A stretch of 64,000 nucleotides of DNA from Acidobacteriota bacterium (GTDB lineage Bacteria > Acidobacteriota > UBA6911 > RPQK01 > CBDDCF01), in the NCBI GenBank assembly GCA_965225995.1, contig CBDDCF010000030.1, positions 36,101 through 100,100 of the forward strand, given 5' to 3'. The stretch's first letter is position 1. Each line of letters opens with the position of its first letter. Position numbers and translations under genes: made by a program. The notes beneath the pieces were generated by a model. The model was not told the origin of the DNA. It made no database searches and saw only the letters and a program-made list of their open reading frames with translations. Of the stretch, positions 7,747 through 64,000 are shown piece by piece.

Positions 7747-7992
7747 TTAGACTCCGCCTTCCCCTTCATCTCGGGGAGTGTGGGAGTCGATGAACTCCAG
7801 CAGCTTTGAGCGCTGTTCGTCGGTTAGGATTTCCAGGAACTGAGCGCGAAATTGCTGGCCGAGATCGGCAAGTTCACCGCGCAAGGCATGCTGGGCGATG
7901 ACGATCTCGCCCACGATCAGAGGAGCGGGTGCTTCCATACTCAACTCGGCTTGCAAGTCTTCGCCCAACTGCTCAACGACAATTATTTTTGA
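7747..7992 (-). pseudogene. C-terminal fragment of a Spy/CpxP-like (LTXXQ) periplasmic protein, probably separated from its 5' half by the IS21 insertion
   Basis: Contains the LTDEQRSKL motif. The frame is open to 7992, right at the IS junction. Its partner fragment on the other side of the IS is 10538..10897. Confidence 0.35.
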
Positions 7993-8256
7993 TCACCGCG
8001 ACTACGATTCTTGCCCGCTGAAGTGGGTGTTTGTTTGACTTGTTTTTCTTCCTTCTTCTGAGGGCTGAAAGCCCTCTTTTCTTCTCCGGTTTTCTTGAGC
8101 GTGGGGATGGAGTGAGGGCTTGCCCGAACGGAGTTCCCACGCTTCGCGAGGCTCGGGATTGCCCTTCGAATGATCCGCTGATTGAGCTGTATACCCTCTG
8201 GGCTTGAGCCGTTTTCTGTGTGGCCAGCAGAAGGCCTTTCGAGCGGCACCTCAGAG

Positions 8257-9021
8257 TCACTTCGTCTCCTTTTGGGTTCTCTGCTTGGCGGCTTCCATCC
8301 GGTAGCTGGTCACGTTCAACTCCAGGATCACGCTATGGTGAACCAGGCGGTCGATTGCCGCGGCCGTGGTCAGGGGATCCTTGAAGATCCTCTCCCAGTC
8401 CGAGAAGACCAGGTTGCTGGTCAGCAGAATCGAGCGACGCTCGTAGCGATGGGAGAGCAACGTGAAGAGAATCTCCATCTCGTCGCGATTCTGCTGTACA
8501 TACCCGATGTCGTCGATGATCAGGGCCTCGAACCGATCCAGCTTCTTGAGTTCCCTCTCCAGAGTTAGCTCGAGCTTGGCTCTCAGTAACCGCTGCACCA
8601 GCAGCGCACAGGTCGAGAACAGCACCCGCCGGTCTCGCAGGATCAACTCCTGCCCCAAAGCACAAACAAGATGCGTTTTCCCGCTTCCTGGATTACCGAA
8701 CACAAGTAGATTTTCGGCTCGGTCCAGGAAGTCTCCCTCCACCAATCCTGACAACTGCCGGTCCACACTCTGCGGGAGTCGTGAGCGATCCAATGAAGTC
8801 AGGCTCTTGTCCCAGGGAAGTTTCGAGGTCCGTCGTAGTTTCTGGATCCGTCGTTCCCGTCGATCCGCGACTTCCAGCTCCGACAGAGCCAGCAGGTACT
8901 GCGGATAAGACCAGCTCTCTGTGGTCGCCAAAGCGGCCTGCGAGCCGTGATGCTCGCGGAAGGGCGGCAGGCGAAGTTCGACCAAACACTCTTTGAGTCT
9001 TTGCAGGTTGCCTCCGCTCAT
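8257..9021 (-). CDS. istB: IS21-family helper ATPase IstB
   Basis: Walker A GNPGSGKTHL, Walker B LIIDDIGY, IstB_IS21 family length and architecture. Confidence 0.9.
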   Translation of the reverse strand: MSGGNLQRLKECLVELRLPPFREHHGSQAALATTESWSYPQYLLALSELEVADRRERRIQKLRRTSKLPWDKSLTSLDRSRLPQSVDRQLSGLVEGDFLDRAENLLVFGNPGSGKTHLVCALGQELILRDRRVLFSTCALLVQRLLRAKLELTLERELKKLDRFEALIIDDIGYVQQNRDEMEILFTLLSHRYERRSILLTSNLVFSDWERIFKDPLTTAAAIDRLVHHSVILELNVTSYRMEAAKQRTQKETK

Positions 9022-10505
9022 GGCCTCACCTCCTGCTCGTGCGTGCCGAGCAATCGGTCATAGATCTGGATGTTGATTGGTGGAACCTGGACCTGCCACC
9101 TCGGCAGAACCGGCTCTATCAGATCCTCCTTCAGGTCCTGGAACCGGGTTCGGCGGCCGCTTTCAATCCGGTTCTTCAGAGCTTGTTCGACTTTCCTTTC
9201 CCCTTCTTGGGCCGCCAGCTCCAGGATCCCCAGATACTGTCGGTCCGCCGTCTGTGGACAATCCTCTCTCAGCTCGTCGTAGGCGACTCGGAACAGGACT
9301 CCGGGAAAGCGATCTTCCCGCCAGCGATAGCGGGCAAAGGCTCCCGGCTTTCGCACCAGCGAGTGGATCACGTGCCGGTAATCGATCCGGTGCTTTCCTT
9401 CCCCCCGCAGTCGAGGCATCTCGGCTACTCGCTGCCCGCCATAACGAACTTCCACATGATCGGCATACAGTCGCGCCTCCACCTGTTCGCGGATCAAGCG
9501 GCTGTCCACCGAGTAGGTGTTGTTGCGCACTCGGATCGTGGAACTGGTTGCGACCTTCACTCGGAATCGGATGAAGTCCTCCAGGCGACGATCCGGTAGC
9601 GGCCTCATCACTTCCAGTTCTTCTCGCAGGCGTCTTTGCCGGCCAGCATTGCGTCGCTCGATGATTCTCTGGACGAACTGCTCGTAGTCCTTGCGCTCTG
9701 AGAAATCGCGACTGCCTCTGAGCAGCAGTTCCTGTTGGATGGATCGCTTGAGCCGGTGATGCGATTGCTCGACGTCTCCGTTCTCATGAGCCTTTCCGGC
9801 TTGGGTTCGGCGGCGCTTCATTCCGTAATGATCGAGCAATGTCTGGTAGCGTTCGGTGAAGGCGCCCTTCTTGAGATTGTTGACCACAGCCGATAGACGG
9901 TCTGTTCGGTGCTCGGATGGTATCGCCCCCAGTTCCCAGATCGCGTTCTGTAGTCCCAGCGTCAAACTCTCGAAAGATTCACCGAAGCACAGGGTCGTCG
10001 TCTCCCAGTTCGAGTAGGTCACGACGAAGTGATACAGCATATGAGGAAAGGGTTGCCCGGCAATCGTCACTCCCCAGCTGTTCATGAAAGTGAAGTCGGA
10101 CTGGGCTTGATGTCCGGGCTCATGATTCTGGGGAAACATCACCTCTTTCAGCTCACCGTAGTGGGCTCTCCACTGCTTGAGCCTTCGTTGGAGCGTCCTC
10201 AGTTGTCCTTCCTCGAACTTCCCCTCGTAGATCCGATTCAGGTGGTCAAAAATAGTTGTCGCCTCCACGGTTGGAGACTGTTTCAGGATCCCTTCTATTT
10301 CGGGCCAAACGGATTCATAGGGATTCGGGCGGGTGCGCCAGGTCCGCTCTGACCGGCTTTCACTCGGCAGCTTGCCCGACTTCAAATACTTCCGTGCCGG
10401 GTTCCGCGACATGCCCGCTTTGGCCGCCGCCATCGTCAACGTCTTTTCCTTTTTCCGCAATTTCATCAGTCTCCTGATCTGCTGGTCTGTAACCATGCTT
10501 GCCAT
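9018..10505 (-). CDS. istA: IS21-family transposase IstA
   Basis: N-terminal HTH (MSRNPARKYL), DDE integrase core, ~495 aa, overlaps istB. Confidence 0.9.
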   Translation of the reverse strand: MASMVTDQQIRRLMKLRKKEKTLTMAAAKAGMSRNPARKYLKSGKLPSESRSERTWRTRPNPYESVWPEIEGILKQSPTVEATTIFDHLNRIYEGKFEEGQLRTLQRRLKQWRAHYGELKEVMFPQNHEPGHQAQSDFTFMNSWGVTIAGQPFPHMLYHFVVTYSNWETTTLCFGESFESLTLGLQNAIWELGAIPSEHRTDRLSAVVNNLKKGAFTERYQTLLDHYGMKRRRTQAGKAHENGDVEQSHHRLKRSIQQELLLRGSRDFSERKDYEQFVQRIIERRNAGRQRRLREELEVMRPLPDRRLEDFIRFRVKVATSSTIRVRNNTYSVDSRLIREQVEARLYADHVEVRYGGQRVAEMPRLRGEGKHRIDYRHVIHSLVRKPGAFARYRWREDRFPGVLFRVAYDELREDCPQTADRQYLGILELAAQEGERKVEQALKNRIESGRRTRFQDLKEDLIEPVLPRWQVQVPPINIQIYDRLLGTHEQEVRP

Positions 10506-17702: not shown

Positions 17703-19403
17703 TTAATTGCCCGATCCGCTATTTGTCTTCTCCAGTTGTGGAGCGCTGCCCAAAGCCCTGAAATACTGTTCGACCCCTCGATAGAGCGCTTCCGCAATCG
17801 CCTGCCGGGCATCATCCTTCGCCAGGTACTTCTCGTCGCTGGGATTGCTGATAAATCCGATTTCGGTGAGAATGCTGGGCATAGTTGAGTTGATCAAAAC
17901 AATAAAGGGAGCCTGTTTGACACCCCGGTTTCTCCAGCGTGGCCTGACCTTGCGCATCTCTCCGTAAAGATTGTCTTGGATGACATGGGCCAAGTCTCTG
18001 GATTCCTCATTGTAGTCGCCGAGAGCGATTTTACGTAACAGGTTTTCCAACTCTCGGATATTCCTTTGGGCGGTGGCATTCTCTCGACTGGCAACTTCCC
18101 GTTCTTCGTCGCCAGTTGCGAAATTGAGAAAGAAGGTCTCGATCCCTGACACTTTTCGATTCGGGCTGGAATTGGCATGGAGCGAAATGAGCAGATCGGC
18201 CCCTTCCGTGTTGGCGATCGCGGTACGCTCTTCCAGGGGAATGAAAACGTCAGTATCGCGAGTCAAGACAACCGGCGTGCCCAGGCGCTGGCCAATCAGG
18301 TCCCGCAACCGCCGCGAGATATCGAGGACGAGGTCTTTCTCACGCGTTCCTCCAGGTCCGATCGTGCCCGTGTCACGTCCTCCATGCCCGGGATCGATAG
18401 CCACTTTTCCGACCTTGAGACCGAGTACCCGGGTCAAGCTCAATTTGCCATCTAGATTGGGGGTTGGAGCGCTGGCTCGCTCGGTGAGGACTTCACGTCT
18501 CGAAGTTCCCTGATCGTCGAGGGAGATTGTCGCTTCCACTGTATTGACTGTACCGGTGCCTGGCGTTTTAGCCGCTGAAGTGCGGGGACCGTGAATGTCG
18601 ATAACAATACGGAAGGGATCGTTCAAGGCGAAGACGCTGTGGGTCTCGATCTGCTCAAAGTCCAGCACTACACGCACCATGCCGGGTTGGTTCTCGCCAA
18701 CTCGAACCTTGCGGAGGCTGACACCGTTCACGTCATAAGTCTTTTCGATAGCAGATGCGAGCTGACTGTTCTCGAGATCGAAGTAGATCCGGTCCGGATA
18801 GGAAAGTACATTCTTCTTGAAAGTAGCCTCGCCGTCTAATTGGATGACCACGCGGGTGTAGTCCTCATTGGACCTGTAACGGATCTCATTCAGGGTGGCC
18901 CGCTTTCCGGATCGGGTTACGCCTGAATCGCCTGTCTCGCGGGGCAGTTTGGGTGTTGCCCTCGCCCTTTCGGCCGCCCGACGCTCGGCTTCAATTTGAA
19001 GATCCAATTCTTCCGCCCGATCCAGAGCGAGTCCCTTGTGTTTCGTCAGAGGATATTCGCGGGCCACGAACCGGTAGTAATAAATGGCGTTGTCGCGGTC
19101 GCCCTCGAGCCGGAAGCGACCGGCCATTTCATCGTATAGCGATGCCACCGCGAACAGAGCATCGTCACAGGCACCATAGGTCGGATCGTGGTCGATGACT
19201 CGGCGGTAAAGGAAGATTGCCCGCTCGTATTGGGCCCGTGGGCGTTGATCGCGGGGAACCGTGAGAAATCCTTCGTGGAAAGAGAGAGCCCGCTTGAACG
19301 ATTCCCGGGCCGCTCGTCGATCACGAGCCAGCGCCGGTTCTGCGACGAATTGACAGACCCAAAATAGAATTCCGAACGCCGCAATCCAGGTCCGGCGGTT
19401 CAT
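17703..19403 (-). CDS. N-acetylmuramoyl-L-alanine amidase (AmiC-like) with N-terminal TPR-like and AMIN-like regions
   Basis: Amidase_3 motifs IDPGHGG, SLHAN and LTEIGFISN. Start MNRRTWIAAFGILF at 19403 is preferred over the upstream ORF start. Confidence 0.8.
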   Translation of the reverse strand: MNRRTWIAAFGILFWVCQFVAEPALARDRRAARESFKRALSFHEGFLTVPRDQRPRAQYERAIFLYRRVIDHDPTYGACDDALFAVASLYDEMAGRFRLEGDRDNAIYYYRFVAREYPLTKHKGLALDRAEELDLQIEAERRAAERARATPKLPRETGDSGVTRSGKRATLNEIRYRSNEDYTRVVIQLDGEATFKKNVLSYPDRIYFDLENSQLASAIEKTYDVNGVSLRKVRVGENQPGMVRVVLDFEQIETHSVFALNDPFRIVIDIHGPRTSAAKTPGTGTVNTVEATISLDDQGTSRREVLTERASAPTPNLDGKLSLTRVLGLKVGKVAIDPGHGGRDTGTIGPGGTREKDLVLDISRRLRDLIGQRLGTPVVLTRDTDVFIPLEERTAIANTEGADLLISLHANSSPNRKVSGIETFFLNFATGDEEREVASRENATAQRNIRELENLLRKIALGDYNEESRDLAHVIQDNLYGEMRKVRPRWRNRGVKQAPFIVLINSTMPSILTEIGFISNPSDEKYLAKDDARQAIAEALYRGVEQYFRALGSAPQLEKTNSGSGN

Positions 19404-19429
19404 CCCAATATCCTTTACAATGCGGCCTA

Positions 19430-20593
19430 GTGCACTGTCCGATAAGTTCCCGATGTTAATAGTGGCCGAGCGATTCGCGAGCATTTTGGACCTTTGCCAG
19501 GATTGAGTCAGCAGTGGCGCGCCACTTGAAGGGCTTGGCCAAGCGTTGATTGTGAACCCGAATATATCTTTTGATTTCCTGTCTCAACTCTTGGACGCTG
19601 CTGAAAGAGTTTCTGTAGATCGAACGGCGCTCCAGCTGTGAGAACCAGCTTTCGACGGCATTGAGCCAGGAGGCGCTAGTGGGCGTAAAGTGGAGGTGGT
19701 ATCGGGGCCGCTGGGCCAGCCAGCTTTGAACCTGCTTGGTCTTATGAGTGCTCGAGTTGTCCAGGATTAAGTGGACATCCAGTTCGGGCTCGACCGCTTG
19801 ATCAATCTGGCGGAGAAAAGCCAGGAACTCCTTGGCTCGGTGCCTATTGGTGATGCGGCCCATGACCTCACCTGTCACCACATCGAATGCGGCATACAGA
19901 CTGGCTGTACCGTGGCGCTTGTAATCGTGTGTCCGGCGTTGGATCTGTCCCGGTCTGAGCTGGAGCATCGGCTGAGTTCTATCCAGAGCCTGGATCTCAG
20001 TTTTCTCGTCCACGGATAGAACCAGCGCATTGTCGGGCGGATCCATATACAGCCCCACCACATCGATTACCTTTTCGGCGAAGTGAGGATCGTTGCTGAT
20101 TTTAAAGTTGCGGACTCGATGCGGCTTCAGGTCGGCTGCCTTCCAGATCTGGGCGACTTGATGTTTGCTCACTCCGGAGTGTTCGGCCATCAGTCGCACA
20201 CTCCAGTAGGTCGATTCCCGTGGGATGCGTTCAACGGTGGCTTTGAGAATAGCTCGCACATTGGCATGCGATAGCTTCCGCGGACGGCCCGATCGAGGTC
20301 GATCCTCCAGTCCTGACACTCCCTGCTCAAGATAGCGCCTGCGCCACATTTGCACACTCATTAGCCGCTTGGAGAGCCTTTCCGCAACTTCAGTCGCCGT
20401 CAGCCCCTGGCCGCAAGCCAGAATTATTTGAGCCCGTTCGGCCAAGACTCGATCGGTCTTGGAAGCCCGCAACCAGGACTCCAGTATTCTTCGATCATGT
20501 TCGGGTAGCTTTAGTCGAATGTGGGGTCTTGCCATGCCCAACAATAGCAAACTACCCTGACAATTAACATCGGTAACTTTCCGGACAGTGCAC
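19430..20593 (-). mobile_element. IS630-family insertion sequence (1164 bp), flanked by TA
   Basis: Imperfect ~31-bp terminal inverted repeats: GTGCACTGTCCGATAAGTTCCCGATGTTAAT at the left end, and the reverse complement of GTGCACTGTCCGGAAAGTTACCGATGTTAAT at the right end. TA at 19428-19429 and 20594-20595. Confidence 0.8.
19456..20535 (-). CDS. IS630-family (Tc1/mariner-like) DDE transposase
   Basis: N-terminal HTH, DDE region (LILDNSSTHKT ... HFTPTSASWLNAVE). Confidence 0.85.
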   Translation of the reverse strand: MARPHIRLKLPEHDRRILESWLRASKTDRVLAERAQIILACGQGLTATEVAERLSKRLMSVQMWRRRYLEQGVSGLEDRPRSGRPRKLSHANVRAILKATVERIPRESTYWSVRLMAEHSGVSKHQVAQIWKAADLKPHRVRNFKISNDPHFAEKVIDVVGLYMDPPDNALVLSVDEKTEIQALDRTQPMLQLRPGQIQRRTHDYKRHGTASLYAAFDVVTGEVMGRITNRHRAKEFLAFLRQIDQAVEPELDVHLILDNSSTHKTKQVQSWLAQRPRYHLHFTPTSASWLNAVESWFSQLERRSIYRNSFSSVQELRQEIKRYIRVHNQRLAKPFKWRATADSILAKVQNARESLGHY

Positions 20594-20882
20594 TAGTGCA
20601 CCTGTACAATGCGGCCTAGTGCACCTGGAACCTGTCCGAGTAATGGGGTGAGGGTGCGAACATGGGTCTTGCCTTCAATCCTTTGAAACAAGAGTCTTTT
20701 CACCTACACCCAGATTCAACCAGGGTACCATTTTCCTCCGTCAACCAGCTCAGTCAACGGAAAGACAGTCGCAAGACTCGGAAATTGGGGAGGCAGGTTC
20801 TGATCCTATCCGGATACCAAAACGGCAGCTCGATTTCTTGTAGACTTGCCAGGTTACCGGCAACGGCGCCGCTGCCTAGCCG

Positions 20883-21892: not shown

Positions 21893-22492
21893 ATGTCGGG
21901 TGTGATCACGGACCGCAAGGATGTTCCCCAAGCCCAACTCCCGACCCGTTTCGGAGAGTTCCGGATCTATGGTTTCGAGAACGAAGTGGATGGGGAACAG
22001 GCGGTGGCCCTGGTGTCTGGAGTGCTGGTGCACCAGGTACCTCTGGTGAGGATTCACTCCCAGTGCCTGACCGGCGACCTCTTTCACTCCTTGCGTTGTG
22101 ATTGTGGGGAGCAGCTGGAGCGGGCGTTGGAGGCGATTACCCAGGCTCGGGCAGGCATTCTCATTTACCAGATGCAGGAGGGTCGTGGAATCGGGCTGAT
22201 CAACAAATTGCGAGCCTACCAGCTGCAAGATCAGGGAATTGATACCGTCGAAGCCAATGTTCGCCTGGGCTTTGAAGCGGACCAGCGCTCCTATGGTTTC
22301 TGTGCCGAGATCCTCAAGTACTTTGAGGCGCGAGAAATTCGGCTCTTGTCCAACAATCCAGAGAAAATCCGGGGCTTGGAACAGGAGGGAATTCAGGTTC
22401 GGGAACGCGTCCCGCTGGTCGTTGCTGCATCGAGCCTATCCGCCCGCTATCTTCAGACCAAGAAAGAGAAACTGGGTCACCTCTTGGATTAA
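21893..22492 (+). CDS. ribA: GTP cyclohydrolase II (RibA)
   Basis: RIHSQCLTGD, FHSLRCDCG and RAYQLQDQGIDTVEAN motifs. The upstream in-frame ATG at 21851 lies inside MITE copy A, so 21893 is preferred. Confidence 0.85.
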   Translation: MSGVITDRKDVPQAQLPTRFGEFRIYGFENEVDGEQAVALVSGVLVHQVPLVRIHSQCLTGDLFHSLRCDCGEQLERALEAITQARAGILIYQMQEGRGIGLINKLRAYQLQDQGIDTVEANVRLGFEADQRSYGFCAEILKYFEAREIRLLSNNPEKIRGLEQEGIQVRERVPLVVAASSLSARYLQTKKEKLGHLLD

Positions 22493-22580
22493 CTCCCAAC
22501 TCACAAGTAATTTAGAAATCCGACTGGAATTCCCTGAAGTCTACCCAGCTTCCGGTGGTGAGTTGGAAGTTGGGAGTTAA
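22490..22580. terminator. Large hairpin between the convergent ribA and thioredoxin-like genes, built from CTCCCAA-type repeats; putative bidirectional terminator
   Basis: Left arm TAACTCCCAACTCACAAG pairs with right arm GGTGAGTTGGAAGTTGGGAGTTAA. A related hairpin lies at 41656-41760. Confidence 0.45.
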
Positions 22581-37126: not shown

Positions 37127-38305
37127 ATGCGGCGTTATCCTGTTCTTTCACTGGCCTGGACTGTCACGTTCTTGTCCCTCTCTCTGGGGCAATTGACTGC
37201 TCAAGAGGCGTCTTCACCACAGCTCGAAAAGATCATCCTCAATCCCGGATTCAAGATCGACCTCTACGCAGGTAACGTACGAAATGCCCGTTCCCTCGTA
37301 AGATCTCCCGAAGGGGTTCTGTTTGTAGGCACGCGCAGCGCCGGCTTCGTCTGGGCGGTGGTGGATTCGAATGGCGACCACCAGGCGGACCGTATCGTGC
37401 AGATTGCTGAAGGACTCCTGATGCCTAACGGAGTGGCCTACCGCGACGGATCACTCTACGTGGCCGAGATAAACCGGATTCTGCGCTATGACAATATCGT
37501 CGAGCGGCTAGACAATCCGCCAACCCCGGTTGTGTTGAACGACAGCCTGCCGAAGGATCGTCACCACGGGTGGAAGTTCATCGATTTCGGTCCCGATGGC
37601 AAGCTCTATGTCCCGGTGGGAGCCCCTTGCAATATCTGCGAACGCCTGGACGATGATCGCTATGCTTCTCTCCTGCGGATGAATCCCGACGGGACCGGCC
37701 TCGAAGTCTTTGCCAAAGGGATTCGGAATACGGTCGGCTTCGCCTGGCATCCCACAACGGGAGACGTCTGGATCACCGACAATGGTCGCGACTGGATGGG
37801 GGACAATATGCCTCCCGATGAGCTGAACCGGGCCACCCGGTCGGGCATGCATTTTGGATTTCCCTATTGCCATGGCGGATTCATGGCTGACCCAGAATTC
37901 GGATCCATACGGGGTTGTGACGAATTGACTCCGCCAGCACAAAACCTGGCTCCCCATGTGGCAGCCCTGGGAGCCGAGTTCTACACCGGAGCCATGTTCC
38001 CCAAGGAATACCGGAATCAGCTCCTCATTGCCGAGCATGGTTCCTGGAACCGTGCCCTTCCCCTCGGTTTTCGAGTCACTCTGGCCCGTATCCAAGACAA
38101 CACCAAAGTTGTGAACTATGAGGTGTTTGCTGAAGGATGGCTGGCGGGGGAAGAGGTCTGGGGACGTCCGGTGGATCTGCTGCAGCTACCCGATGGATCC
38201 CTACTTCTCTCGGATGACCAGGTGGGCGCGATCTATCGAATCAGCTACGATGCTGCGCTGGCCCTCGAGCAGGCCCCGGGTCCGCGCCGTCGCGGCGGCG
38301 ATTAG
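37127..38305 (+). CDS. PQQ-dependent sugar (sorbosone/glucose) dehydrogenase-like beta-propeller, secreted
   Basis: Signal peptide. Length and the HGG, DNGRD and PDG motifs are typical of soluble quinoprotein dehydrogenase family proteins. Confidence 0.55.
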   Translation: MRRYPVLSLAWTVTFLSLSLGQLTAQEASSPQLEKIILNPGFKIDLYAGNVRNARSLVRSPEGVLFVGTRSAGFVWAVVDSNGDHQADRIVQIAEGLLMPNGVAYRDGSLYVAEINRILRYDNIVERLDNPPTPVVLNDSLPKDRHHGWKFIDFGPDGKLYVPVGAPCNICERLDDDRYASLLRMNPDGTGLEVFAKGIRNTVGFAWHPTTGDVWITDNGRDWMGDNMPPDELNRATRSGMHFGFPYCHGGFMADPEFGSIRGCDELTPPAQNLAPHVAALGAEFYTGAMFPKEYRNQLLIAEHGSWNRALPLGFRVTLARIQDNTKVVNYEVFAEGWLAGEEVWGRPVDLLQLPDGSLLLSDDQVGAIYRISYDAALALEQAPGPRRRGGD

Positions 38306-38375
38306 AGTTCGGCTGAAATGCGATCGCAGAGTGTTGTGTTGCAATCCGGAGATCAACTCAAGCCCGACTACAAAG

Positions 38376-38450
38376 CTTTTATTTTCAATAAGATCGCCGC
38401 CTGGGAAGGCACCTCCCACGGTTTTGAAACTCTGTTCTCCTGAAAGGCAG
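38376..38450 (+). repeat. Partial copy (~75 bp) of the ~265-bp structured repeat
   Basis: AGATCGCCGCCTGGGAAGGCACCTCCCACGGTTTTGAAAC matches the core of the copies at 25413-25478 and 52395-52460. Confidence 0.45.
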
Positions 38451-38522: not shown

Positions 38523-40297
38523 CTACTTTAGCTTAGGTAAGACCGCCAGCCGAAGCTCTTCTAACTGCTCTGGAGTCACCGGCGAGGGCGCCCCTGACAT
38601 CAGATCGAGAGCACGGGCCGTCTTGGGAAAAGCGATCACCTCGCGTAGCGAAGACTCCCCGGCCAACAGCATGGCGATCCGATCCAGGCCAAGAGCGATT
38701 CCTCCATGGGGAGGGGCACCGTAGCGTAGTGCTTCCAAGAAGAAACCGAAGCGCAGGTCGGCTTCCTCGTCCTGGATCCCCAAGAGCTGGAAGATCTTCC
38801 GCTGGACCTCGGTCTGATGGATTCGGATGGAGCCTCCGCCAATTTCGGAGCCGTTCAAGACGACGTCATAGGCCTGGGCGAGGGCAGCACTTGGATCAGT
38901 TTTCAAGAGAGCTTGATCTTCAACCCGCGGCGCCGTGAAAGGGTGATGGAGTGAGTAGTATCGACCATCAGCCTCATTCCATTCCAAGAGTGGAAAATCT
39001 TGAACCCAGAGAAGGTTCCAGGCGTCGGGAATCAGATTTCGCTGAGTGGCGACATGGGAACGCAGGGCCGCCAACGAATCATTGACTACCTTGGGCTGAC
39101 CCGCCACGATCAAGAGGATGTCCCCGGTTTTCGATCCTGCCAGCCGGCAAACTCGCTCCAATTCGGGCTCGGTCACCACCTTGGGAAGTGAGCTGCGGAT
39201 ACCTTCCGGGAGGTGTTGGATCCACGTCAGAGCCTGGGCTCCGAAAGCTTTGATGAATTCTCCGAGCTGGTCGAGCTGTTTTCGACTGAGTTCGGTTCCC
39301 CCTTCGAGGCAGATTCCCTTGATTTGTCCTCCACTCTCGAGAATGCTCCGAAAGATCCGAAACTGGCTGCTCTCGAAACCACCACTCAAATCGACTAATT
39401 CCAATCCGTATCGGGTGTCGGGCCGGTCGGTGCCGAAGCGTTCGACCGCTTCGTGGTAGCTCAGACGCGGGAAGGGAAACGGGAATCTCGACGCCGATCA
39501 GCTGGAAGAGATCGGCCAGCAGGCTTTCGACCGTGCTCAAGACAATCTCGCGGTTCACGAAAGACATCTCGATGTCGATTTGTGTGAATTCGGGCTGACG
39601 ATCGGCCCTTAGATCCTCGTCGCGGAAGCAGCGTACGATCTGGAAGTAGCGATCGAATCCCGAGATCATCAGGATCTGCTTGAAGATCTGTGGGGATTGA
39701 GGAAGCGCATAGAAGTGTCCCCTCTTGGAGCCGGCTCGGTACCAGGTAGTCGCGAGCCCCCTCCGGAGTCGATTTCGTCAAGAAGGGAGTTTCAATTTCC
39801 AAGAAACCCTGTGCGTCGAGATGCTTCCGAACGCTGAGAGCGATCTGATGACGGAGTTTCAAGTTCCTCTGGAATTGCGGGCGACGCAGATCGAGATAGC
39901 GATAGCGAAGCCTATTTTCTTCGCTGATAGCGGCTTTTTCGCTGAGCGAAATGGGAGGAGTATCGGATCGGTTTAGCAGTACGACTTTTTTGGCCAGAAC
40001 TTCGATCTCGCCGCTCGGCATGTCCGGGTTGACTGTTTCAGGAGAGCGATGAACGACCTCTCCCTGAACCAGGACGACGAACTCCGAGCGCATCTGCTTG
40101 GCGGTTTCGAAGGCTTCCACGGATTCGGAATTCACGGTCACCTGAACGATCCCTTCCCGATCCCGTAAGCTCAGGAAAATGAGGTTGCCCAGGTCTCTGC
40201 GATTGTGGACCCAGCCCATGAGAGTAACCTGGCTCGAGGCGTCAGATGCACGCAAGAGTCCACAATAGTTGGTTCTCGAAGACGTGGTTTGATTCAT
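38523..40297 (-). pseudogene. aspS: Aspartyl-tRNA synthetase, interrupted by at least two frameshifts (pieces 40297->~39730, ~39669->~39490, 39404->38523)
   Basis: N-terminal piece with anticodon-binding region and [25 protein letters not shown]. Middle piece [52 protein letters not shown] in another frame. C-terminal piece with motif 3 GGIALGLDRIAM in a third frame. The first shift is at a CCCC run (~39730). Confidence 0.85.
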
Positions 40298-40342: not shown

Positions 40343-41620
40343 TCAAGAAGACAGCCGATCGAGCAAAGTCGCTGTCAGTGACTCCCGACTGACTGGGATC
40401 TGCTCTCCATCCAGCATCTGTTTGAGAACCATTTCTCCCGACTGCAGCTCATTCTCGCCGAGCACGCAAGTGAAGCGCGCCCCAACTCGATTGGCCCACC
40501 TCAATTGAGCCTTGAGCGATCGGGCCGCGAAGTCGACTTCGACCCGGATGCCGTGCTCGCGTAAGGACTTCTGCAGAGACAGTGCCGCTCGAAAAGTCTC
40601 TTCGTCGAAATAGATCAAGATCAGATCTGGAACCGGTAGCTGGAAAGGCGACTGAATACTGTCGCGCCCGGAGAGTAACAGCACGAGTCTCTCCAATCCC
40701 ATGGCAAAGCCGAATCCTCGAGTCGCAGTTCCCCCCAAGATTTCTGCCAGGCCATCGTACCGACCCCCTCCAACCAGAGCATTCTGGGTGGGTCCCAACT
40801 GGTCGCTGATGATTTCGAAAGTAGTTCGAACGTAATAGTCGAGCCCCCGAACCAGTCGGGGCTCCTCCGCATACTCGAGCCCGTGCAAATCGAGGTAGCT
40901 CTTGAAGCCGGCATAATGCGTTTGGCATTCCTCACACCAGTGCTGGTCGATGGTTGGCAGCTCGGCAATCCAGGGCTGACAACTGGGAACTTTGCAGTCG
41001 AAAATGCGGAGCGGGTTGCTTTCCAGGCGCCGATGGCACTGTCCGCATAGCTGGTCCAGTCACCAGAAGCGCCTGGCGCCGCAGTAGAGCGACAAAAGCT
41101 GGCCGGCAGTTTGCGCAGCCCACCGAATTCACGAGCAGACGGTACTCCCGCAACCCCATCCGGCTCAAAAAGCCAGTCAGCATTTCGAGGACCTCGGCTT
41201 CGACAGCTGGGATGGTCCCGTTCCCAGGACTTCGGCCCCCAGTTGGTGAAACTGGCGGTAGCGACCCTTCTGGGGACGTTCGCGTCGAAACATTGGACCC
41301 ATGTAGTAGAGTTTGATAGTCGAGGAGAGGGCCTGCAGATTGTGCTCCAGATAGGAGCGAACTACTGGCGCAGTGCCCTCTGGTCTCAGGCTCATGCGGT
41401 TTCCGCGAGTATCTTCGAGAGTGAACATCTCCTTTTGGACGATGTCGGTCTCGCCTCCGATACTGCGTGTGAAGAGTTCGGTCTCTTCCAATACAGGGGT
41501 CCGAATCTCGTCAAATCCATAGCGCGGAAAGAGTGCACGGACAGTGGATTCGATCCGCTGCCACAGCTCGACTGAGCCGGGCAGAATGTCGTGTGTCCCC
41601 CGGATTGATCTGACGTCCAT
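40343..41620 (-). pseudogene. hisS: Histidyl-tRNA synthetase, interrupted by at least two frameshifts (pieces 41620->~41180, 41183->40932, 40888->40343)
   Basis: N-terminal MDVRSIRGTHDILP...LRPEGTAPVVRSY...FRRERPQKGRYRQFHQLGAEVLG. Middle LSRMGLREYRLLVNSVGC in a second frame. C-terminal GLDYYVRTTFE...GGGRYDGL and the anticodon-binding domain in a third frame. Confidence 0.8.
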
Positions 41621-41655
41621 GATGATCTTCCCCGAAAAGCATGCATTATAGCTTG

Positions 41656-41760
41656 TAACTCCCAACTCCCAACTCCCAACCGGAGGGGGGCCGTATCCAA
41701 GTCGGCGGTACCCATGCCCGCAGACTTATTTGTGAGTTGGTAGTTGGGACTTGGGAGTTA
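41656..41760. repeat. Large hairpin built from (CTCCCAA)n arms with a ~50-nt loop, between comE-like and hisS
   Basis: Left arm TAACTCCCAACTCCCAACTCCCAAC; right arm GTGAGTTGGTAGTTGGGACTTGGGAGTTA. Related to the 22490-22580 hairpin. Confidence 0.5.
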
Positions 41761-45835: not shown

Positions 45836-48675
45836 ATGAAACTGTTTTATTGGATACGGGCTTTGGTGACTGGTTTGAGAGGGCGCAAACGGCAGGAAAG
45901 TAGTCTGAGCGACGAGTTGGAGAGCTTTCTCAATCTGGCAGTCGAAGACAAGTGTCGGCAAGGAATGACACCCCAGCAAGCGCGTCGCGAAGCGTTGATC
46001 GAATTGGGTGGCCTGGAGCCGACTAAAGAGCGAGTACGGGATGGCCGAGTTGGGGAGGGATTGGAACGGGTATGGCAGGACGTCCGCTTTGCCTCCCGGC
46101 TCCTTCGTGCACATCCTGGTTTCTCAGTGGCAGTGCTGTTGACCTTGGCTCTCGGGGTGGGGGCCAACAGCGCGATTTACAGCCTCGGGCAAGCGGTTCT
46201 CTTTCGCTCCGCACCCGTGGAGCGGCCCCAAGAACTGGTGGCCGTCTGGACCACATGCCGGCGCGGCGCGCCGCAGTGCGCCAGTTCCTACCCCGACTAC
46301 CTGGACTACCGAGAACGGTCTCCTACACTTCAGGATTTGGCGGCATATTCTTGGAAGGCGATCAGTTTGGCCTCGGAAGCGGGCAGTCGAGTGGTGACGG
46401 CTCAGCTGGACAGTGGAAATTACTTTTCCATGCTCGGAGTGGGCACCCTTCTGGGTCGCTCTTTGTTGGAGTCGGATGATCGGTTGGGGGGCGCGCCGGT
46501 GGCTGTCCTGGGTCACCGCTTCTGGGTCTCTCATTTCGCCTCTGATCCTCAGATCATCGGAACAGTTATTCGCCTCAATGGTGAGCCTTTCCAGGTTGTA
46601 GGGGTCACTCCAGCAGGCTTCGACGGCTTGCACCTGGGAGCCGGTCCCGACCTGCATATTCCCCTTCAAGCGCTCCCCCTGTTGAGCGTAAATGCCGAAC
46701 GGGCTCGGCAGCGATTTTCGACTCGCGGCTCGCGCTGGATTCCTCAGTTGGTTGGCCGGCGTCTGCCGGGAACGACGTTGGAAGCGGTTCGCCAAGAGAT
46801 GGCCGCCATTTCGGAGCAGTTGGCCAAGGAGGATCCCGAGTCCCGTGGACCGCGCAAGATAACTATCGAGCCTGCAGCTCAGTTCATTCTGCCGGTGTCG
46901 CGAGCCCAGGACGTGGTGGCCTTCGTTTTTCTTCTGGGAGGAGTGGTTGGGCTGACCTTGCTCCTGGCTTGCGCCAATCTCTCGAATCTCTTGCGGGCTC
47001 GAGGACTGGCGCGGCAACACGAAATGGGGATTCGGGTGGCTATCGGAGCGAGTCGAGGGCGCCTCGTGAGACAGCAGATCACCGAGACTCTGGTTCTAGC
47101 ACTGTTGGGAGGAGGCCTCGGACTCCTGGTGGCCCGACTCATGCTGGCCGGGATCGCTTCGTTTGAATTGCCGGGCGGAATCCTGATCGAATCGGTTCAT
47201 CCGGAGCTCGACTGGGGAGTCCTCCTCGCGACTTTCGGTGTCGCCTTGTTGGCAGGATTGTTGGCGGGCTTCTTACCCGCCCTCCAGGGCACCCATTTCC
47301 GACTCGCAAAAATACTGGTTCAGGGGGCCGGCCGGGTCGACTCGACTCCTGCTGGCCATCACCTGCGCAGGGCTCTGGTCGGAATTCAGTTGGCCCTCTC
47401 GTTGGTCTTGCTGGTAGGGACAGGGCTCTTCTTGAAATCGCTGCAAAACGGATTCGCGACCGATCTCGGCTTCCGGAGCGAAGGCCTGGTCACCGCTCGG
47501 GTCGATCTCTCTTTGCTCCACTACTCCGAGGCAGAGGGGCGCCGCCTGTTGGAACAACTCATCGAGCGCTTGGAGGCCTATCCTGGAGTTGAGTCGGCGG
47601 GAGTCGGAAGCCGGCTTCCACTTGGGACAGGAGGATCAGCAACATTTCTCTCTCGGGTGGAGGGCTATACTCCCGCACCCGACGAGGAGCTCCGCATCAA
47701 TATCGAGTTTTTCCGGCCAGCTTTGCGCGCACCCTCGGACTTCAGCTAGTTGCCGGTGAAGCTCTGACAGCGAATGGCGGAGTGGACCATATCTTGATCA
47801 ATCGAGTGATGGCCGAGCGGTGGTGGTCGGGGAGAAATCCGGTGGGCGGACAAGTGCAGATGGGAGAGCGGACATTCCAGGTCACGGGAGTGCTGGAAGA
47901 TGTCCACTGGAGGGCTCAACTAGAGGAGCCATCGCTGCCTTTTGTTTTCTTTCCACTGGAGACCTCACCCTCCCGAGCGGAGGATAGCCCGATGGCGGTC
48001 TTCGCCAGAACCAGTGGGGATCCAAGCGCTCTCATGACCTTTCTCCGCGAGCAGGTGCATCAGCTCGACAGAAATCTCAGTCCCACGGCGATGACTGCCA
48101 TGGACGACCGCCTGGCCCACCTTTTGATGCCGCAGAGAATGGCAGCTTTCCTGTTTACTTGCTTTGGATCCCTGGGGCTTCTGCTGGCGGCCGTCGGAGT
48201 CTACGGCATCACCAGCTTCAGCGTCGGTCGACGCTCTCGTGAAATCGGCCTTCTCATCGCGGTGGGAGCCCGGCGCTGGCAGATCCTGTGGTTGATGGCG
48301 CGGCAATTAGCCCTACCCGTCATCCTGGGACTGGGTCTGGGAATCCTCCTCACCGGGCTACTTTCGGGGGCGGCCGAGAGTTTCCTGCTGGGTCATTCTG
48401 CAATTGATGGCGGAGCGATCCTGCTCAGCTTGGGTGCCCTCCTGATTGTCGTCTTCGGTGCCTGCCTGATCCCGGCCTCCCGTGCCTCCCGACTCGATCC
48501 CTGCAGGCGCTGCGGACCGAATGATGCTTGTCGGAAAGCAGCTAGATTTCATTGCGCCTCAGACCGACGAGGCGCCCGGAGAAGCTTGGCGGAGCCCTTC
48601 GGAGTGTGCGCGGCCAGACCGCCGCCTTTCCCTCGAAAGCGGTACTTGGACTGCCCATCCGGCTTGCCGATTTGA
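45836..48675 (+). CDS. ADOP-family ABC transporter permease (duplicated FtsX/MacB-like), with a -1 frameshift at a T5 run near 47705 (ORFs 45836..47749 and 47782..48675)
   Basis: N-terminal MacB-like periplasmic domain and two FtsX 4-TM blocks. Sequence continuity (...EFF | RTLGLQLVAGEALT...) is recovered by shifting frame at gagtttttccgg. Confidence 0.7.
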
Positions 48676-58597: not shown

Positions 58598-60252
58598 CTA
58601 GCCCGGATTATGCAAGAACCGTAGGCCGGAGTTGAAAAGAGAGTCGAAAGTGGCCTAAATCGGGAGATCGAAGGTGCGACAGGCGGATTTTCGAGGGATC
58701 TCTGTGGACGAGCCGTGTGGAGTAGGTGGGGGAGTGAATTTCAGACGGAGTTGGGCCTGAATGAGTGTCCTAAACGATCATTCGGGAGCTAGGAGAGGCT
58801 AGCTGGAGTTAAGGCGATTCAAGACGAGGAGGAAAAGGGCCTGCTCCGGAAAGCCGGAGGAAAGATGGGCCCAGATGCGTCGAGTGGTTTGTCGAACCCG
58901 CGCCCCAATTTTGAGGACCCGGCGACGCAAAGTTTCGATTTCGAGTTTCTGCCAGGGGGTTCCATACAGATAATCGCGGAGTCGGACGAACATCTGGTAA
59001 GCCAGCCCATGCAGGAGAAGTCGAAACTGGTTGGCCAGGAATCGATGACAGCTCAGCCGATCCATACTCAGATGGTTCTTAAAAGCCTTGATGAAGTTCT
59101 CCGACTGTCCTCGATCGGTGTAGTGATCATAAAGGGACTGGGAAGAGAGATCGTCTCGGTTGGTGACCACAAAGCGACGATTGATCCCCCGATGGTCGAC
59201 TTCCACTTTGACGATGACGCGACGGAATCGATCCCAGCTGCTGGCTCGATAAAGAAACTCGTCAAACTGACGCTGTTTTTCCTCGAACTCGTCGAACCTG
59301 AGTCGAGTCGACTCGAGCATCGGCTCGACCATCCGTTGCCGGCGGGGGTTCCGGCTTAACCCAATGACATATTGGAGTTTGTTCTCTTCAGATTCACAGA
59401 ACTCGTAGAGCCGAGGCGTGGCAAAGCCGCTGTCGGCCCGGATCTCAATTTGAAGTTCCTTGCCAACTTCTCGTCGAATGGCTTTCACGATTCGTTTCAG
59501 AATAGGAACGATGTGAGAGGCAGCCCCCTTGTTTCCAGGCCTCAATACGACAGTGACCAGGTCCCCCGTAACGGCATCGAAGATCAGCCAAGGATGCAGA
59601 ATGTGGTTTCGGTAATAGCCGTGGTAAAAAGAGAATTCCTGTTGGCCGTGAGTGTGGTCGTCAGTACTGTCCAGGTCCAAGATGACCGGGTCGGGGCGTC
59701 TCTTCTTCAGCGAGCGGACATAACGCTGTAGGAACCCCCGGCTCAGACGCATGAGATCCTTCTTGCTGACAGAGTTTTCCAAACGGGAAAAAGTTGCCTG
59801 GGTGGCCAAGTCAGGATCGCTCTCAGGTAACTGATCACAGACGGTCTTGAGCATGGGATCCGAGCGCAGCGTGTCCGCGTCATTGCAGTCTTCGTACCCG
59901 GCAACGATCTGAAAGACTCGTTGTCGGATCAGCTGTAACTGCTCATGACGAACGTAGCGTTGGTCCCGGCTATCCGCAATACACGAACTGAAGTCCTCGC
60001 AGAGTCGATCTTGCCGATCCAGGGAACCAAACAACAGCCATCCGGCATCGGAAGTCAGGTTCCCACCATCAAAACGAGCCGTGATTTGTGTGTGCGAGTG
60101 AAATGCCAGGGTGGTCTGACAGACTGGGTTTGACATTGCCGTAGTTCTCCGATAAGGATTTGTTTAATAAACCCTTTTATATCAGAGAGATACGGCATTT
60201 TTTCTGGTCCCCAATCCACTCGAATCCGGATCTCTTGCATAATCCGGGCTAG
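58598..60252 (-). mobile_element. IS1380/IS4-like insertion sequence (1655 bp) with perfect 20-bp terminal inverted repeats
   Basis: CTAGCCCGGATTATGCAAGA at 58598-58617 and its exact reverse complement at 60233-60252. If CTAG is the target duplication, the TIR is the 16 bp beginning with CC. Confidence 0.75.
58799..60136 (-). CDS. DDE transposase (IS1380/IS4-like, DDE_Tnp_1)
   Basis: 445 aa; DLDSTDDHTHG and DSGF acidic motifs. Confidence 0.75.
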   Translation of the reverse strand: MSNPVCQTTLAFHSHTQITARFDGGNLTSDAGWLLFGSLDRQDRLCEDFSSCIADSRDQRYVRHEQLQLIRQRVFQIVAGYEDCNDADTLRSDPMLKTVCDQLPESDPDLATQATFSRLENSVSKKDLMRLSRGFLQRYVRSLKKRRPDPVILDLDSTDDHTHGQQEFSFYHGYYRNHILHPWLIFDAVTGDLVTVVLRPGNKGAASHIVPILKRIVKAIRREVGKELQIEIRADSGFATPRLYEFCESEENKLQYVIGLSRNPRRQRMVEPMLESTRLRFDEFEEKQRQFDEFLYRASSWDRFRRVIVKVEVDHRGINRRFVVTNRDDLSSQSLYDHYTDRGQSENFIKAFKNHLSMDRLSCHRFLANQFRLLLHGLAYQMFVRLRDYLYGTPWQKLEIETLRRRVLKIGARVRQTTRRIWAHLSSGFPEQALFLLVLNRLNSS

Positions 60253-60706
60253 AACACGATACAGGCGATTCTCAACCGTTTCCCTGGAAGGATAGCTGTC
60301 GGGGGCCACATCAAAAGCGGCCACTCAGGGCCGGGTCAAAACCGGCCAGTGATCTAGTAGTTATATCCTCGCCTTGAACACATTTCAATCCTTGTGAAGG
60401 CCTCCGTGAGGAGGCTGTACGGCCTGCTGGTCGGGGTGGGTTTGCTGTGAGCCCGTGAGCAGGGCGTTCGTTGACCGGTTCGGCCGGTTCTTGGACCGCG
60501 AAGCTGGTCGATCCGGAATCTTCTTTCTTGTTGGTATGTCCAGTAGCAGAAGCGGTGCGTAACTGTGGGAAACGAGCGAGCACCGCGAGCCGTTTTCCAA
60601 GCGCTGTGGGAACGGTGGAAGAACCGATGCATGGGCCAGCTTCTCGATGTGACCGTTCTCCACGGTTTCCATAGCGCGGCAGTTTCCACGGCTTTCCGGT
60701 TCCGGA

Positions 60707-61480
60707 TCATTTCTTTTCTCCTCGCTTCTTGGTCGACTTCTCCCGTTGTTGACGTTCGTAGAGGCGATAGCTCTTGCCTCGAATGAAGGTCACCTCCGAA
60801 ACGTGTAGAAAACGATCCAGCAGCGCAGAGGTGGCCGCCGTGTCTCCTCCCAGCATCGCTCCCCAGTCCTCGAGTGGTCGGTTCGAACTGATAATGGTCG
60901 AGGTCTTCTGGTAGCGGCGATGCAGGATCTCCAGCAGATCTTCAGCCGCCGAGTCGGGCACTCTCCGAAGTCCCAGATCCTCGATGATCAGCAGCGGGAT
61001 CCGGGTCATCTCTGCAATGTAGGGTCGGCGCATCCCGGTGGCAGTGGCTTCAGCGATGTCCTCGAGCAGATCGAAAGCCGACTTGTACTGTACCCGGTGA
61101 CCCGCTTCCACAGCCTTGATTGCCACCGTGATGATCAGATGTGTTTTGCCGACTCCCGCCTGACCGATGACCAACCAGCCGCGACACTGTTCGATGAATC
61201 GGCAAGTGGCCAGATCAAAGATCTGCTGCCGATTGATCGAGGTGTTGAAAGAGAACCTGAAGTCCTCCAAGAGTTTGCGTTCCGGGAACTGGGCCTGGCG
61301 GAGACATCGCTCCAGCAAACGGTCGCGCCGGCGGGTGAGTTCGTCGTCGATGAGCAGCTCAAAGAACTCCTGATGAGAGAGACGGCCCTGGATGGCTTGT
61401 TGCAGCCGTACGTCAAAGACCTGGGCCAGGCCCGAGAGCCTGAGGTGGCGAAGTTTCCGTTCCAGTTCCAATGAGATCAT
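60707..61480 (-). CDS. istB: IS21-family helper ATPase IstB
   Basis: Walker A GQAGVGKTHL, Walker B LLIIEDLG. Confidence 0.9.
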   Translation of the reverse strand: MISLELERKLRHLRLSGLAQVFDVRLQQAIQGRLSHQEFFELLIDDELTRRRDRLLERCLRQAQFPERKLLEDFRFSFNTSINRQQIFDLATCRFIEQCRGWLVIGQAGVGKTHLIITVAIKAVEAGHRVQYKSAFDLLEDIAEATATGMRRPYIAEMTRIPLLIIEDLGLRRVPDSAAEDLLEILHRRYQKTSTIISSNRPLEDWGAMLGGDTAATSALLDRFLHVSEVTFIRGKSYRLYERQQREKSTKKRGEKK

Positions 61481-62973
61481 TCCGGGTCTCCTGAGCGGGG
61501 AGTGAGTTGGTACTCAGACAGCGGCCGAATCAACTCGTGGTCGGAGGTGAATAGAGAGCGTTGCGGCACGTCTAGTCGCTTGCATAAAGCCACCAGGGTC
61601 CGATAGCGGAAGGCATCGTGAGAGAGAGCCTTGGCACAGGCTTCATTGACGACCGTGGCCGGGTAGCGTCGGGTCAAAGAGATCATGCCTCTCAGGAGCC
61701 GGTAGGCCAACACGTCGCGCACCTCCAGGGCTCGCACTGCCCAGCGGTGAGCATCAGAGCCAATCCTGCGGGCTTGCCCGAGCAGCTGACTCTCAGTTCG
61801 ATAATGAGCGTAGCGTTTGCGTTCCGGAAGATGTGTGGGTTCGGTCTGGAACTGGCCGGGTTTCCGCTTGGGATGCAGGACGACTTGCTGCTCTCGGAAA
61901 AAGACTCGGACGATCCGGTCATCCCAGTGCACAGCCACTTCACAGCCAAGCAGATGATTGGGTACCGAGTAGAAGGCTCGATCGACTTCGATGTGGCCAT
62001 CCACGGAGACCGTGCGACGGCCGGTACGGAAGAAACTGAAGCGGGAGTCGGGTAGAGGTCGAAGACCCTTCTGTTCCTCCAGGAATCGGGGCCAGACCTG
62101 CTGTTTGGTGGTGCCGTGGATGCGCTGTCGGGCGACCCGCTCGTTCCAGTTCCGTAGATGCTCATTCTGCTCGGCCAGACTCTCGAACCGTCTGCCCTTC
62201 AGGGCACTGGACTTTGTATATCCGATCGTCCTTTCGACTTTTCCATTCTCATTTGGAGAGCCAGGATGGATGGGAATGATGGCAAAACTATAGTGACGGC
62301 CCAGCGCACTGAAAACGGCGTTGATCTCGGGATCGACAAAGCAGGCTCGCGTGACTCCGGCCTTCAGGTTATCCAAGCGAACCACGTCTACCGAGCCACC
62401 AAACCAGTGGAAGGCATTCTCGACACAACGGACGAAGGTCTCCAGATCCTGCCGCCAGACGACCTCCTCATACGAGTGGCGGGAATAACACAGCACTGCC
62501 TTGAACAGGTGGGGGCGACGGTACCGGCCCGATTCGGTTTGTGTCAGAGCTGCTTTGCCAAAGTCCACCTGCATGTCCCGACCGGGTGGAGTTTCCACCC
62601 GAGCGAAGACTCGTGGACTCTCGGCTTTGAGCTTTCTGCAAAACCGTTTGACGGAGTTATACGCTCCATCGAAGCCATGCTCCAAAACCAGGTCTTGCCA
62701 GATCCGCTTGGCATGCAACCCCAGCTCAAGCTTCTTCTGGATTTCCTCCCGAAAAGGCTCACACGAGCTGCGCCGACCCGGGGGCCGCTTTGGCCGCTTT
62801 TGCTCACCCGAGCCGGGGGCCACTTTGGCCGGTTTTGAATCTCGGGCCGGATCATGTCGGGCTACAGTCTCTCGACGAACTCCTGTTTCTCGCTCGATCC
62901 GCCGATACGACCAGCCCAGCTTCAATAGCGCCACAACCGTTTGTTTCTTCTCCATTTTCAGTACATTGACCAT
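61477..62973 (-). CDS. istA: IS21-family transposase IstA
   Basis: HTH + DDE integrase core, 498 aa, 4-bp overlap with istB. Confidence 0.9.
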   Translation of the reverse strand: MVNVLKMEKKQTVVALLKLGWSYRRIERETGVRRETVARHDPARDSKPAKVAPGSGEQKRPKRPPGRRSSCEPFREEIQKKLELGLHAKRIWQDLVLEHGFDGAYNSVKRFCRKLKAESPRVFARVETPPGRDMQVDFGKAALTQTESGRYRRPHLFKAVLCYSRHSYEEVVWRQDLETFVRCVENAFHWFGGSVDVVRLDNLKAGVTRACFVDPEINAVFSALGRHYSFAIIPIHPGSPNENGKVERTIGYTKSSALKGRRFESLAEQNEHLRNWNERVARQRIHGTTKQQVWPRFLEEQKGLRPLPDSRFSFFRTGRRTVSVDGHIEVDRAFYSVPNHLLGCEVAVHWDDRIVRVFFREQQVVLHPKRKPGQFQTEPTHLPERKRYAHYRTESQLLGQARRIGSDAHRWAVRALEVRDVLAYRLLRGMISLTRRYPATVVNEACAKALSHDAFRYRTLVALCKRLDVPQRSLFTSDHELIRPLSEYQLTPRSGDPE

Positions 62974-63068
62974 CGGCGCATCCTACGAGGGATGCAGCTC
63001 TCAATGGCTCCTGAAAATGGCCGGTTTTGAAGTGGCCCTCACTGGCCGCTTTTGGGTGGCCCCTGACA

Positions 63069-63595
63069 TCCACGGATAGAACCAGCGCATTGTCGGGCGG
63101 ATCCATATACAGCCCCACCACATCGATTACCTTTTCGGCGAAGTGAGGATCGTTGCTGATTTTAAAGTTACGGACTCGATGCGGCTTCAGGTCGGCTGCC
63201 TTCCAGATCTGGGCGACTTGATGTTTGCTCACTCCGGAGTGTTCGGCCATCAGTCGCACACTCCAGTAGGTCGATTCCCGTGGGATGCGTTCAACGGTGG
63301 CTTTGAGAATAGCTCGCACATTGGCATGCGATAGCTTCCGCGGAGGGCCCGATCGAGGTCGATCCTCCAGTCCTGACACTCCCTGCTCAAGATAGCGCCT
63401 GCGCCACATTTGCACACTCAGTAGCCGCTTGGAGAGCCTTTCCGAAACTTCAGTCGCCGTCAGCCCCTGGCCGCAAGCCAGAATTATTTGAGCCCGTTCG
63501 GCCAAGACTCGATCGGTCTTGGAAGCCCGCAACCAGGACTCCAGTATTCTTCGATCTTGTTCGGGTAGCTTTAGTCGAATGTGGGGTCTTGCCAT
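63069..63595 (-). pseudogene. IS630 transposase, N-terminal ~175 codons only
   Basis: MARPHIRLKLPEQDRRILESWL...PPDNALVLSVD, then the sequence diverges at the IS21 junction. Confidence 0.7.
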
Positions 63596-63653
63596 GCCCA
63601 ACAATAGCAAACTACCCTGACATTTAACATCGGGAACTTTCCGGACAGTGCAC
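63069..63653 (-). mobile_element. Truncated second copy of the IS630-family element (right half only)
   Basis: 63073-63653 is ~98% identical to 20010-20593, including the terminal repeat CGGACAGTGCAC at 63641-63653. The IS21 insertion ends at 63068. Confidence 0.75.
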
Positions 63654-63763
63654 TGGGCACCGACAACGAGGCCAAGTGGCAATCAGTTTCCAGTTTCGGA
63701 GACTTGACTCGGCTGTAAGCAAGTTGCAAGGGAGAGGTGCCTAGGACCTGTTATCATTCGGCT

Positions 63764-64000
63764 ATGCTGAAGGTGGGTCTCACGGGCGGAATTGCGTGTG
63801 GCAAGAGCTTTGCCCGCAAGGAGTTTCAGAAGCTTGGCGTACATGGAATCGACTCCGATCGCATCGGGCACGAGGTGATCGGCAAGGATGGCTCTGCTTT
63901 CCAAGCCGTGGTTGAGGAATTCGGAGCCTCAATTCTGGATGCTTCCGGCGGCATAGATCGCCGTAAATTGGGAGTCCTTGTCTTTGGCGATGATGCGTTA
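63764..64000 (+). CDS. coaE: Dephospho-CoA kinase (CoaE), 3'-partial at window end
   Basis: MLKVGLTGGIACGKSFARKEFQKLGVHGIDSDRIGHEV... P-loop GLTGGIACGKS, typical of CoaE. No stop before the window end. Confidence 0.6.
   Translation, partial: MLKVGLTGGIACGKSFARKEFQKLGVHGIDSDRIGHEVIGKDGSAFQAVVEEFGASILDASGGIDRRKLGVLVFGDDAL

Follow-up and report, generated by a model that had tools for sequence, protein, structure and literature searches.

A hisS-aspS gene pair spread over several reading frames

Two neighboring genes on the minus strand of the window (the whole stretch of DNA that was analyzed, 64 kb), hisS and aspS, each run through more than one reading frame (Table 1). For aspS, three-frame translation recovers a bacterial-type AspRS distributed over frames 0, +1, and +2 along a stretch of 1775 nt, i.e., of length 3n+2. 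Frame 0 starts with an ATG at 40297 and extends, as assembled, to a stop at 39461; the frame +1 section ends ...GVEIP, and frame +2 ends ...KLK with its stop at 38523. We evaluated family membership with NCBIfam NF001750 (aspartate--tRNA ligase; model of 590 positions, curated cut-off of 443 bits). The three aspS ORFs, of 278, 196, and 293 aa, match consecutive stretches of the model (positions 3-192, 208-273, and 297-586 of 590) at 260.6, 101.2, and 331.6 bits, each under the cut-off, and the NF001750 profile found no single ORF over the AspRS family cut-off in aspS as assembled. Consecutive model coverage by three ORFs excludes a chance pattern. When one base is removed at each of two sites, the repaired AspRS scores 816.6 bits over positions 3-586 of 590 and aligns with the AspRS of other Acidobacteriota gaplessly across both sites. 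The fragments in the window span the OB, class II core, and GAD domains in sequence, and the same order was found with PF01336, PF00152, and PF02938 on the identical 590-aa product of a sister contig (see below).

The gene directly upstream, hisS, carries three extra bases of its own. Its coding path runs in frame 0, then in frame +1 for 6 nt and in frame +2 for about 155 nt, before returning to frame 0, and the frame-0 reading meets stops within the shifted stretch. Here too, ORFs give separate matches to one family model (TIGR00442 positions 2-131 and 244-404). With a spacing of 45 nt, hisS and aspS look like an ordinary adjacent gene pair, and a promoter-like site some 25 nt ahead of the start codon of hisS, identified from its match to consensus, would fit a normally expressed pair.

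Table 1 Coordinates of the features discussed, as positions in the window.
Feature	Position	Strand	Description
aspS	38523..40297	-	bacterial-type AspRS in three frames
aspS 5' part, frame 0	39723..40297	-	AspRS residues 1 to ~192: OB-fold anticodon-binding domain and start of catalytic core
aspS middle part, frame +1	39484..39718	-	class II motifs; NF001750 positions 208-273
aspS 3' part, frame +2	38523..39480	-	GAD insertion domain and C-terminal catalytic core; NF001750 positions 297-586
hisS	40343..41620	-	HisRS with three extra bases
Promoter-like site	41645..41672	-	TTGGGA, 16-nt spacer, TATAAT; 10/12 consensus matches (consensus match only)
Site 1 (hisS)	41217..41219		CCC on + strand; CC in other assemblies; coding GG to GGG
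Site 2 (hisS)	41211..41213		GGG on + strand; GG in other assemblies; coding CC to CCC
Site 3 (hisS)	41056..41057		CC on + strand; single C in other assemblies; coding G to GG
Site 4 (aspS)	39719..39722		CCCC on + strand; run of 3 in three other assemblies; coding GGG to GGGG
Site 5 (aspS)	39481..39483		GGG on + strand; run of 2 in other assemblies; coding CC to CCC
MacB/FtsX-type (ADOP-like) permease	45836..48675	+	split into 637-aa and 277-aa ORFs by a 1-nt deletion near 47720
Tandem GGGAGTT heptamers	41657..41677	-	intergenic
Tandem GGGAGTT heptamers	41746..41759	+	intergenic
Tandem GGGAGTT heptamers	22491..22504	-	intergenic
Tandem GGGAGTT heptamers	22565..22578	+	intergenic
AMIN/amidase protein	17703..19484		593 aa; R56L relative to the sister contig
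Insertion sequences	7970..10505, 58799..60250, 60290..64000, 19456..20620		two IS21-type istA/istB pairs, a DDE_Tnp_1 element, and a DDE_3 element

The five lesions are all 1-nt insertions, each copying a neighboring G or C, and the whole set lies inside 1.74 kb. An existing base or run is lengthened by exactly 1 nt in every case, and once the five bases are removed, AspRS and HisRS match the proteins of the 7.44 Mb sister contig at every residue. We found no consistent motif, e.g., one linked to methylation, around the five sites: a G-run followed by AC occurs at three of them and GGACC at two. A preliminary description of this DNA had reported AspRS running through three successive frames, which the translation and the fragment matches to NF001750 bear out; its shifts, placed near ~39730 (tgtcccctc, 39716-39724) and ~39480, fall within about 10 nt of sites 4 and 5. 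That description captured the break in aspS and missed the damage to hisS, with its three further insertions.

The extra bases are private to one deposited contig

We compared the window with related assemblies. The closest, a 7.44 Mb contig (ENA ERZ28763718:ctg125702, hereafter the sister), was reached by exact-protein look-up of a neighboring gene, and the alignment between the two covers 27127-55180 of the window only (28 kb, in three overlapping stretches). Over these 28 kb, the sister differs by one substitution (47612) and five 1-nt gaps, at window positions 41217, 41211, 41056, 39719, and 39481, with the extra base always in the window. The hisS-aspS pair thus accounts for five insertions, no deletion, and no substitution, against one substitution and no indel in the other 26 kb; under uniform placement, five events would cluster this tightly (1.74 of 28 kb) with a probability of about 8e-5. 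Both genes are intact in the sister, with gene calls of 424 aa for hisS and 590 aa for aspS. A more distant strain, at 99.5% identity, is represented in two assemblies, ERZ25068854:contig_81 (1.2 Mb) and ERZ25071132:ctg817601_8x_l (219 kb), which we judged from their contig names to have been built with different assemblers. It is intact at 5/5 sites and differs from the window by 42 substitutions in 12.7 kb, the sole 1-nt indels being the same five, with the window deviating. Hence the lesions are missing from three independent assemblies (ERZ28763718, ERZ25068854, and ERZ25071132).

The same contrast is seen at the protein level. In a collection of 15 billion proteins, the broken products (AspRS of 278 and 288 aa, HisRS of 147 and 181 aa) occur on one 264,571-bp contig (NCBI, ENA) only, while the intact 590-aa and 424-aa forms are present on several other strain-level contigs. 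The deposited 288-aa product (P0124) corresponds to the 3' part of aspS. Since the broken products are found in this collection, the frameshifts belong to the deposited record. A GTDB genome scan did not find a conspecific genome, the nearest species representatives having about 62% AspRS identity.

The strain in the window is close to, and distinct from, that of the 7.44 Mb contig, from which it is separated by rare private substitutions, e.g., at 47612 and R56L in the 593-aa AMIN/amidase protein. The substitution at 47612 changes R to W in the 637-aa permease ORF.

Independent contigs fall short of the broken stretch

As a proxy for reads, we turned to Logan contigs, which come from independent assembly of reads, one public run at a time. 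Five Logan contigs of run ERR14231558, 18.7 kb in total, are 100% identical to the window. Logan holds the window allele of 47612, the sister allele being found in ENA only, and an 8.9-kb Logan contig of ERR14231558 is identical to the window over the greater part of the gene for the 593-aa protein, in which the sister differs by one residue. Since contigs of ERR14231558 carry the private alleles of the window, the strain of the window is very probably present in this run.

For six other window genes, five of which lie no more than about 8 kb from hisS-aspS, Logan copies were recovered, and the longest Logan contigs elsewhere reach 8.9 kb. At the broken pair, by comparison, one contig (L006) reaches 41218, including the two G's that both versions have, and stops just short of the first extra base; the nearest contig recovered on the other side of this gap ends at 38408, with none recovered between 38408 and 41218. 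Exact look-up of guessed fragments starting after sites 2, 3, and 5 returned no Logan product of HisRS or AspRS, and a query with the C-terminal 290 aa of HisRS gave, among its best 120 matches, no Logan HisRS fragment of at least about 145 aa near 100% identity. This suggests that solid read support is missing exactly across the broken stretch, with Logan contigs, not reads, serving as the proxy.

Other variable features of the window and related strains

Outside hisS-aspS, long ORFs are packed normally, Pfam matches in the first 1-11.5 kb are full-length, and ORF lengths are as on related contigs. None of the other window genes examined is split, save a MacB-like permease whose split is common to the 7.44 Mb contig. 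At this permease lesion, the window reads CCAGC where intact relatives read ...FFRPGFARTLGL.... Unlike the aspS and hisS lesions, this split appears in two assemblies, and it may be real. Other strain assemblies show different breaks in the same gene, i.e., a 443-aa fragment in one case and an aberrant N-terminus in an 878-aa form in another.

Several further differences were observed between strains. Tandem GGGAGTT heptamers in intergenic regions gave five matches against 0.02 expected; one overlies the -35 region of the hisS promoter-like site, and at 22490 a 99.6% strain (L003) and the window are one unit (7 nt) apart in copy number. Insertion sequence content also varies by strain, L003 having an extra IS pair at window ~25573 and the 7.44 Mb genome carrying multiple IS21 copies. 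In the 99.5% strain, a TPP_enzyme_C gene (L092/L093 3952-4575, equivalent to window ~41726-42349) is called as 109 + 85 aa vs 207 aa, and a GSDH-like gene (L092/L093 7853-9143, equivalent to window 37127-38323) has 377 vs 392 aa and carries a complex indel of 19 nt at the 3' end. These two differences may be real strain variation or errors of those assemblies.

A local consensus error as the most probable origin

We consider that the breaks in hisS and aspS are assembly or consensus indel errors and not a biological pseudogene, with a probability of roughly 0.87. This reading is favored because the lesions are private to one record, clustered, exclusively insertions in a homopolymer context, and reversible to the sister sequence. 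Extra bases that copy their neighbor are a classical signature of single-molecule sequencing error. We propose that a stretch of at least 1.74 kb of the deposited 264,571-bp contig would carry five consensus errors, and that the consensus there may have rested on one read, or on very few noisy reads, of a low-coverage metagenome. The names of related contigs from the same projects include "7x" and "8x", and the source data were probably long-read.

Frameshifted pseudo-pseudogenes are a known product of errors in long-read assembly (PMC12007338). The present case resembles such homopolymer indel errors (PMC12007338) in that runs are extended by a single base, genes are split into adjacent ORFs matching consecutive parts of a model, the lesions are missing from independent assemblies, and their removal restores the gene exactly. 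It departs from the usual long-read pattern in that the five indels are clustered in 1.74 kb of an otherwise clean 64-kb window and not scattered, the runs concerned are of 1-3 bases and not long homopolymers, and only insertions are seen. Three considerations weigh against this explanation. Five insertion errors would hardly be expected if the source contig were short-read; outside this stretch, comparison with relatives shows a window essentially free of errors, so that a special local cause must be assumed; and the window strain and the 7.44 Mb contig are not identical, with rare private substitutions leaving room for a real change specific to this strain. The status of the extra bases as errors is, moreover, something we infer from assemblies rather than from reads.

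The preliminary description had offered two alternatives, localized indel errors or a real pseudogene implying a second AspRS. The former is favored by five private, clustered insertions, found in none of three other assemblies and accompanied by no substitution, and the latter is not supported. In its extended form, the pseudogene alternative would have five independent +1 insertions inactivating both hisS and aspS in this strain, perhaps through a burst of localized error-prone repair synthesis, with other gene copies or routes charging His-tRNA and Asp-tRNA. We regard it as improbable. It is true that the frameshifts are in the deposited record and were not introduced later, that a few private substitutions make the window strain a distinct lineage, and that Logan contigs match the window perfectly wherever they are present. 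However, no Logan contig with the inserted alleles was found, and one ends exactly at the first site. Further, with the sister about 1 substitution per 28 kb away, the number of neutral indels expected in 1.74 kb is many orders of magnitude below the five seen there, which moreover come with zero substitutions; neutral decay at roughly one substitution per 10-30 kb does not yield five indels within 1.7 kb. Decaying bacterial pseudogenes accumulate mainly substitutions and deletions, with a bias towards deletions. Here, 5/5 changes are insertions, and the substitutions and deletions that would signal relaxed selection are not seen relative to the sister. Two essential genes would also have to be struck at once, while relatives are all intact at the same locus. 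Thus, the locus resembles the true pseudogenes of reductive genome evolution as a set of frameshifted remnants of a recognizable gene, and differs from them in being without substitutions or deletions, in lesions common to no relative, and in affecting two essential genes together. No second aspS or hisS was found within the 64-kb window, and there is no need to invoke a second aspS. Slightly less probable again is that the insertions are real and record a burst of localized +1 insertion mutagenesis within 1.7 kb, in a lineage ~1 substitution per 10-30 kb from its sister. If so, hisS and aspS would have been lost together in the burst, leaving a lineage that lives on other copies or is a dying sub-population in the metagenome.

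We give next to no credence to programmed recoding, i.e., +1 ribosomal frameshifting or transcriptional slippage at G/C runs. As in prfB-type +1 frameshifting or slippage, the change of frame coincides with a short run of one base, and with a short homopolymer at every site slippage would be possible in principle; in contrast to those systems, the sites are unconserved, they display no stop or slippery motif, and five events are involved. These would have to be separate, three in hisS and two in aspS, whereas 99.99% identical and 99.5% relatives encode the same proteins in one frame, and this lack of conservation in relatives effectively refutes recoding. Inspection of the sites revealed no stop, slippery heptamer, or known motif, frame 0 running about 86 codons past site 4. 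Runs of 2-4 bases, as found here, are too short for efficient transcriptional slippage. It seems just as far-fetched that the window is right and the other assemblies are wrong, a reading for which nothing specific speaks: three assemblies, from at least three ENA analyses and with two contig-naming styles, agree with each other, and the proteins they encode are full-length and collinear with distant homologues. Assemblers being blind to reading frame, an accidental restoration of five frames is ruled out.

Implications for the interpretation of the genome

With local consensus error as the preferred reading, hisS and aspS of this uncultured Acidobacteriota bacterium are most likely a pair of intact, ordinary housekeeping genes lying side by side. 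The repaired aspS product resembles bacterial-type AspRS (NF001750/TIGR00459) in being full-length, with an OB-fold, a class II core, and GAD, and its gene lies directly downstream of hisS as in relatives; the assembled version differs in having no single ORF that reaches the family cut-off. The underlying genes are an ordinary AspRS (NF001750/TIGR00459) and an ordinary HisRS (TIGR00442), and nothing about them is biologically new.

The significance of the locus is mainly one of quality control. Taken at face value, the record implies an Acidobacteriota MAG without functional AspRS and HisRS, a reading that would depress completeness estimates and prompt the false inference of a second aspS or of indirect pathways. 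A generally clean metagenome contig can harbor a short patch of clustered errors, and "pseudogene" calls in essential genes need checking against sister assemblies or reads before they are interpreted.
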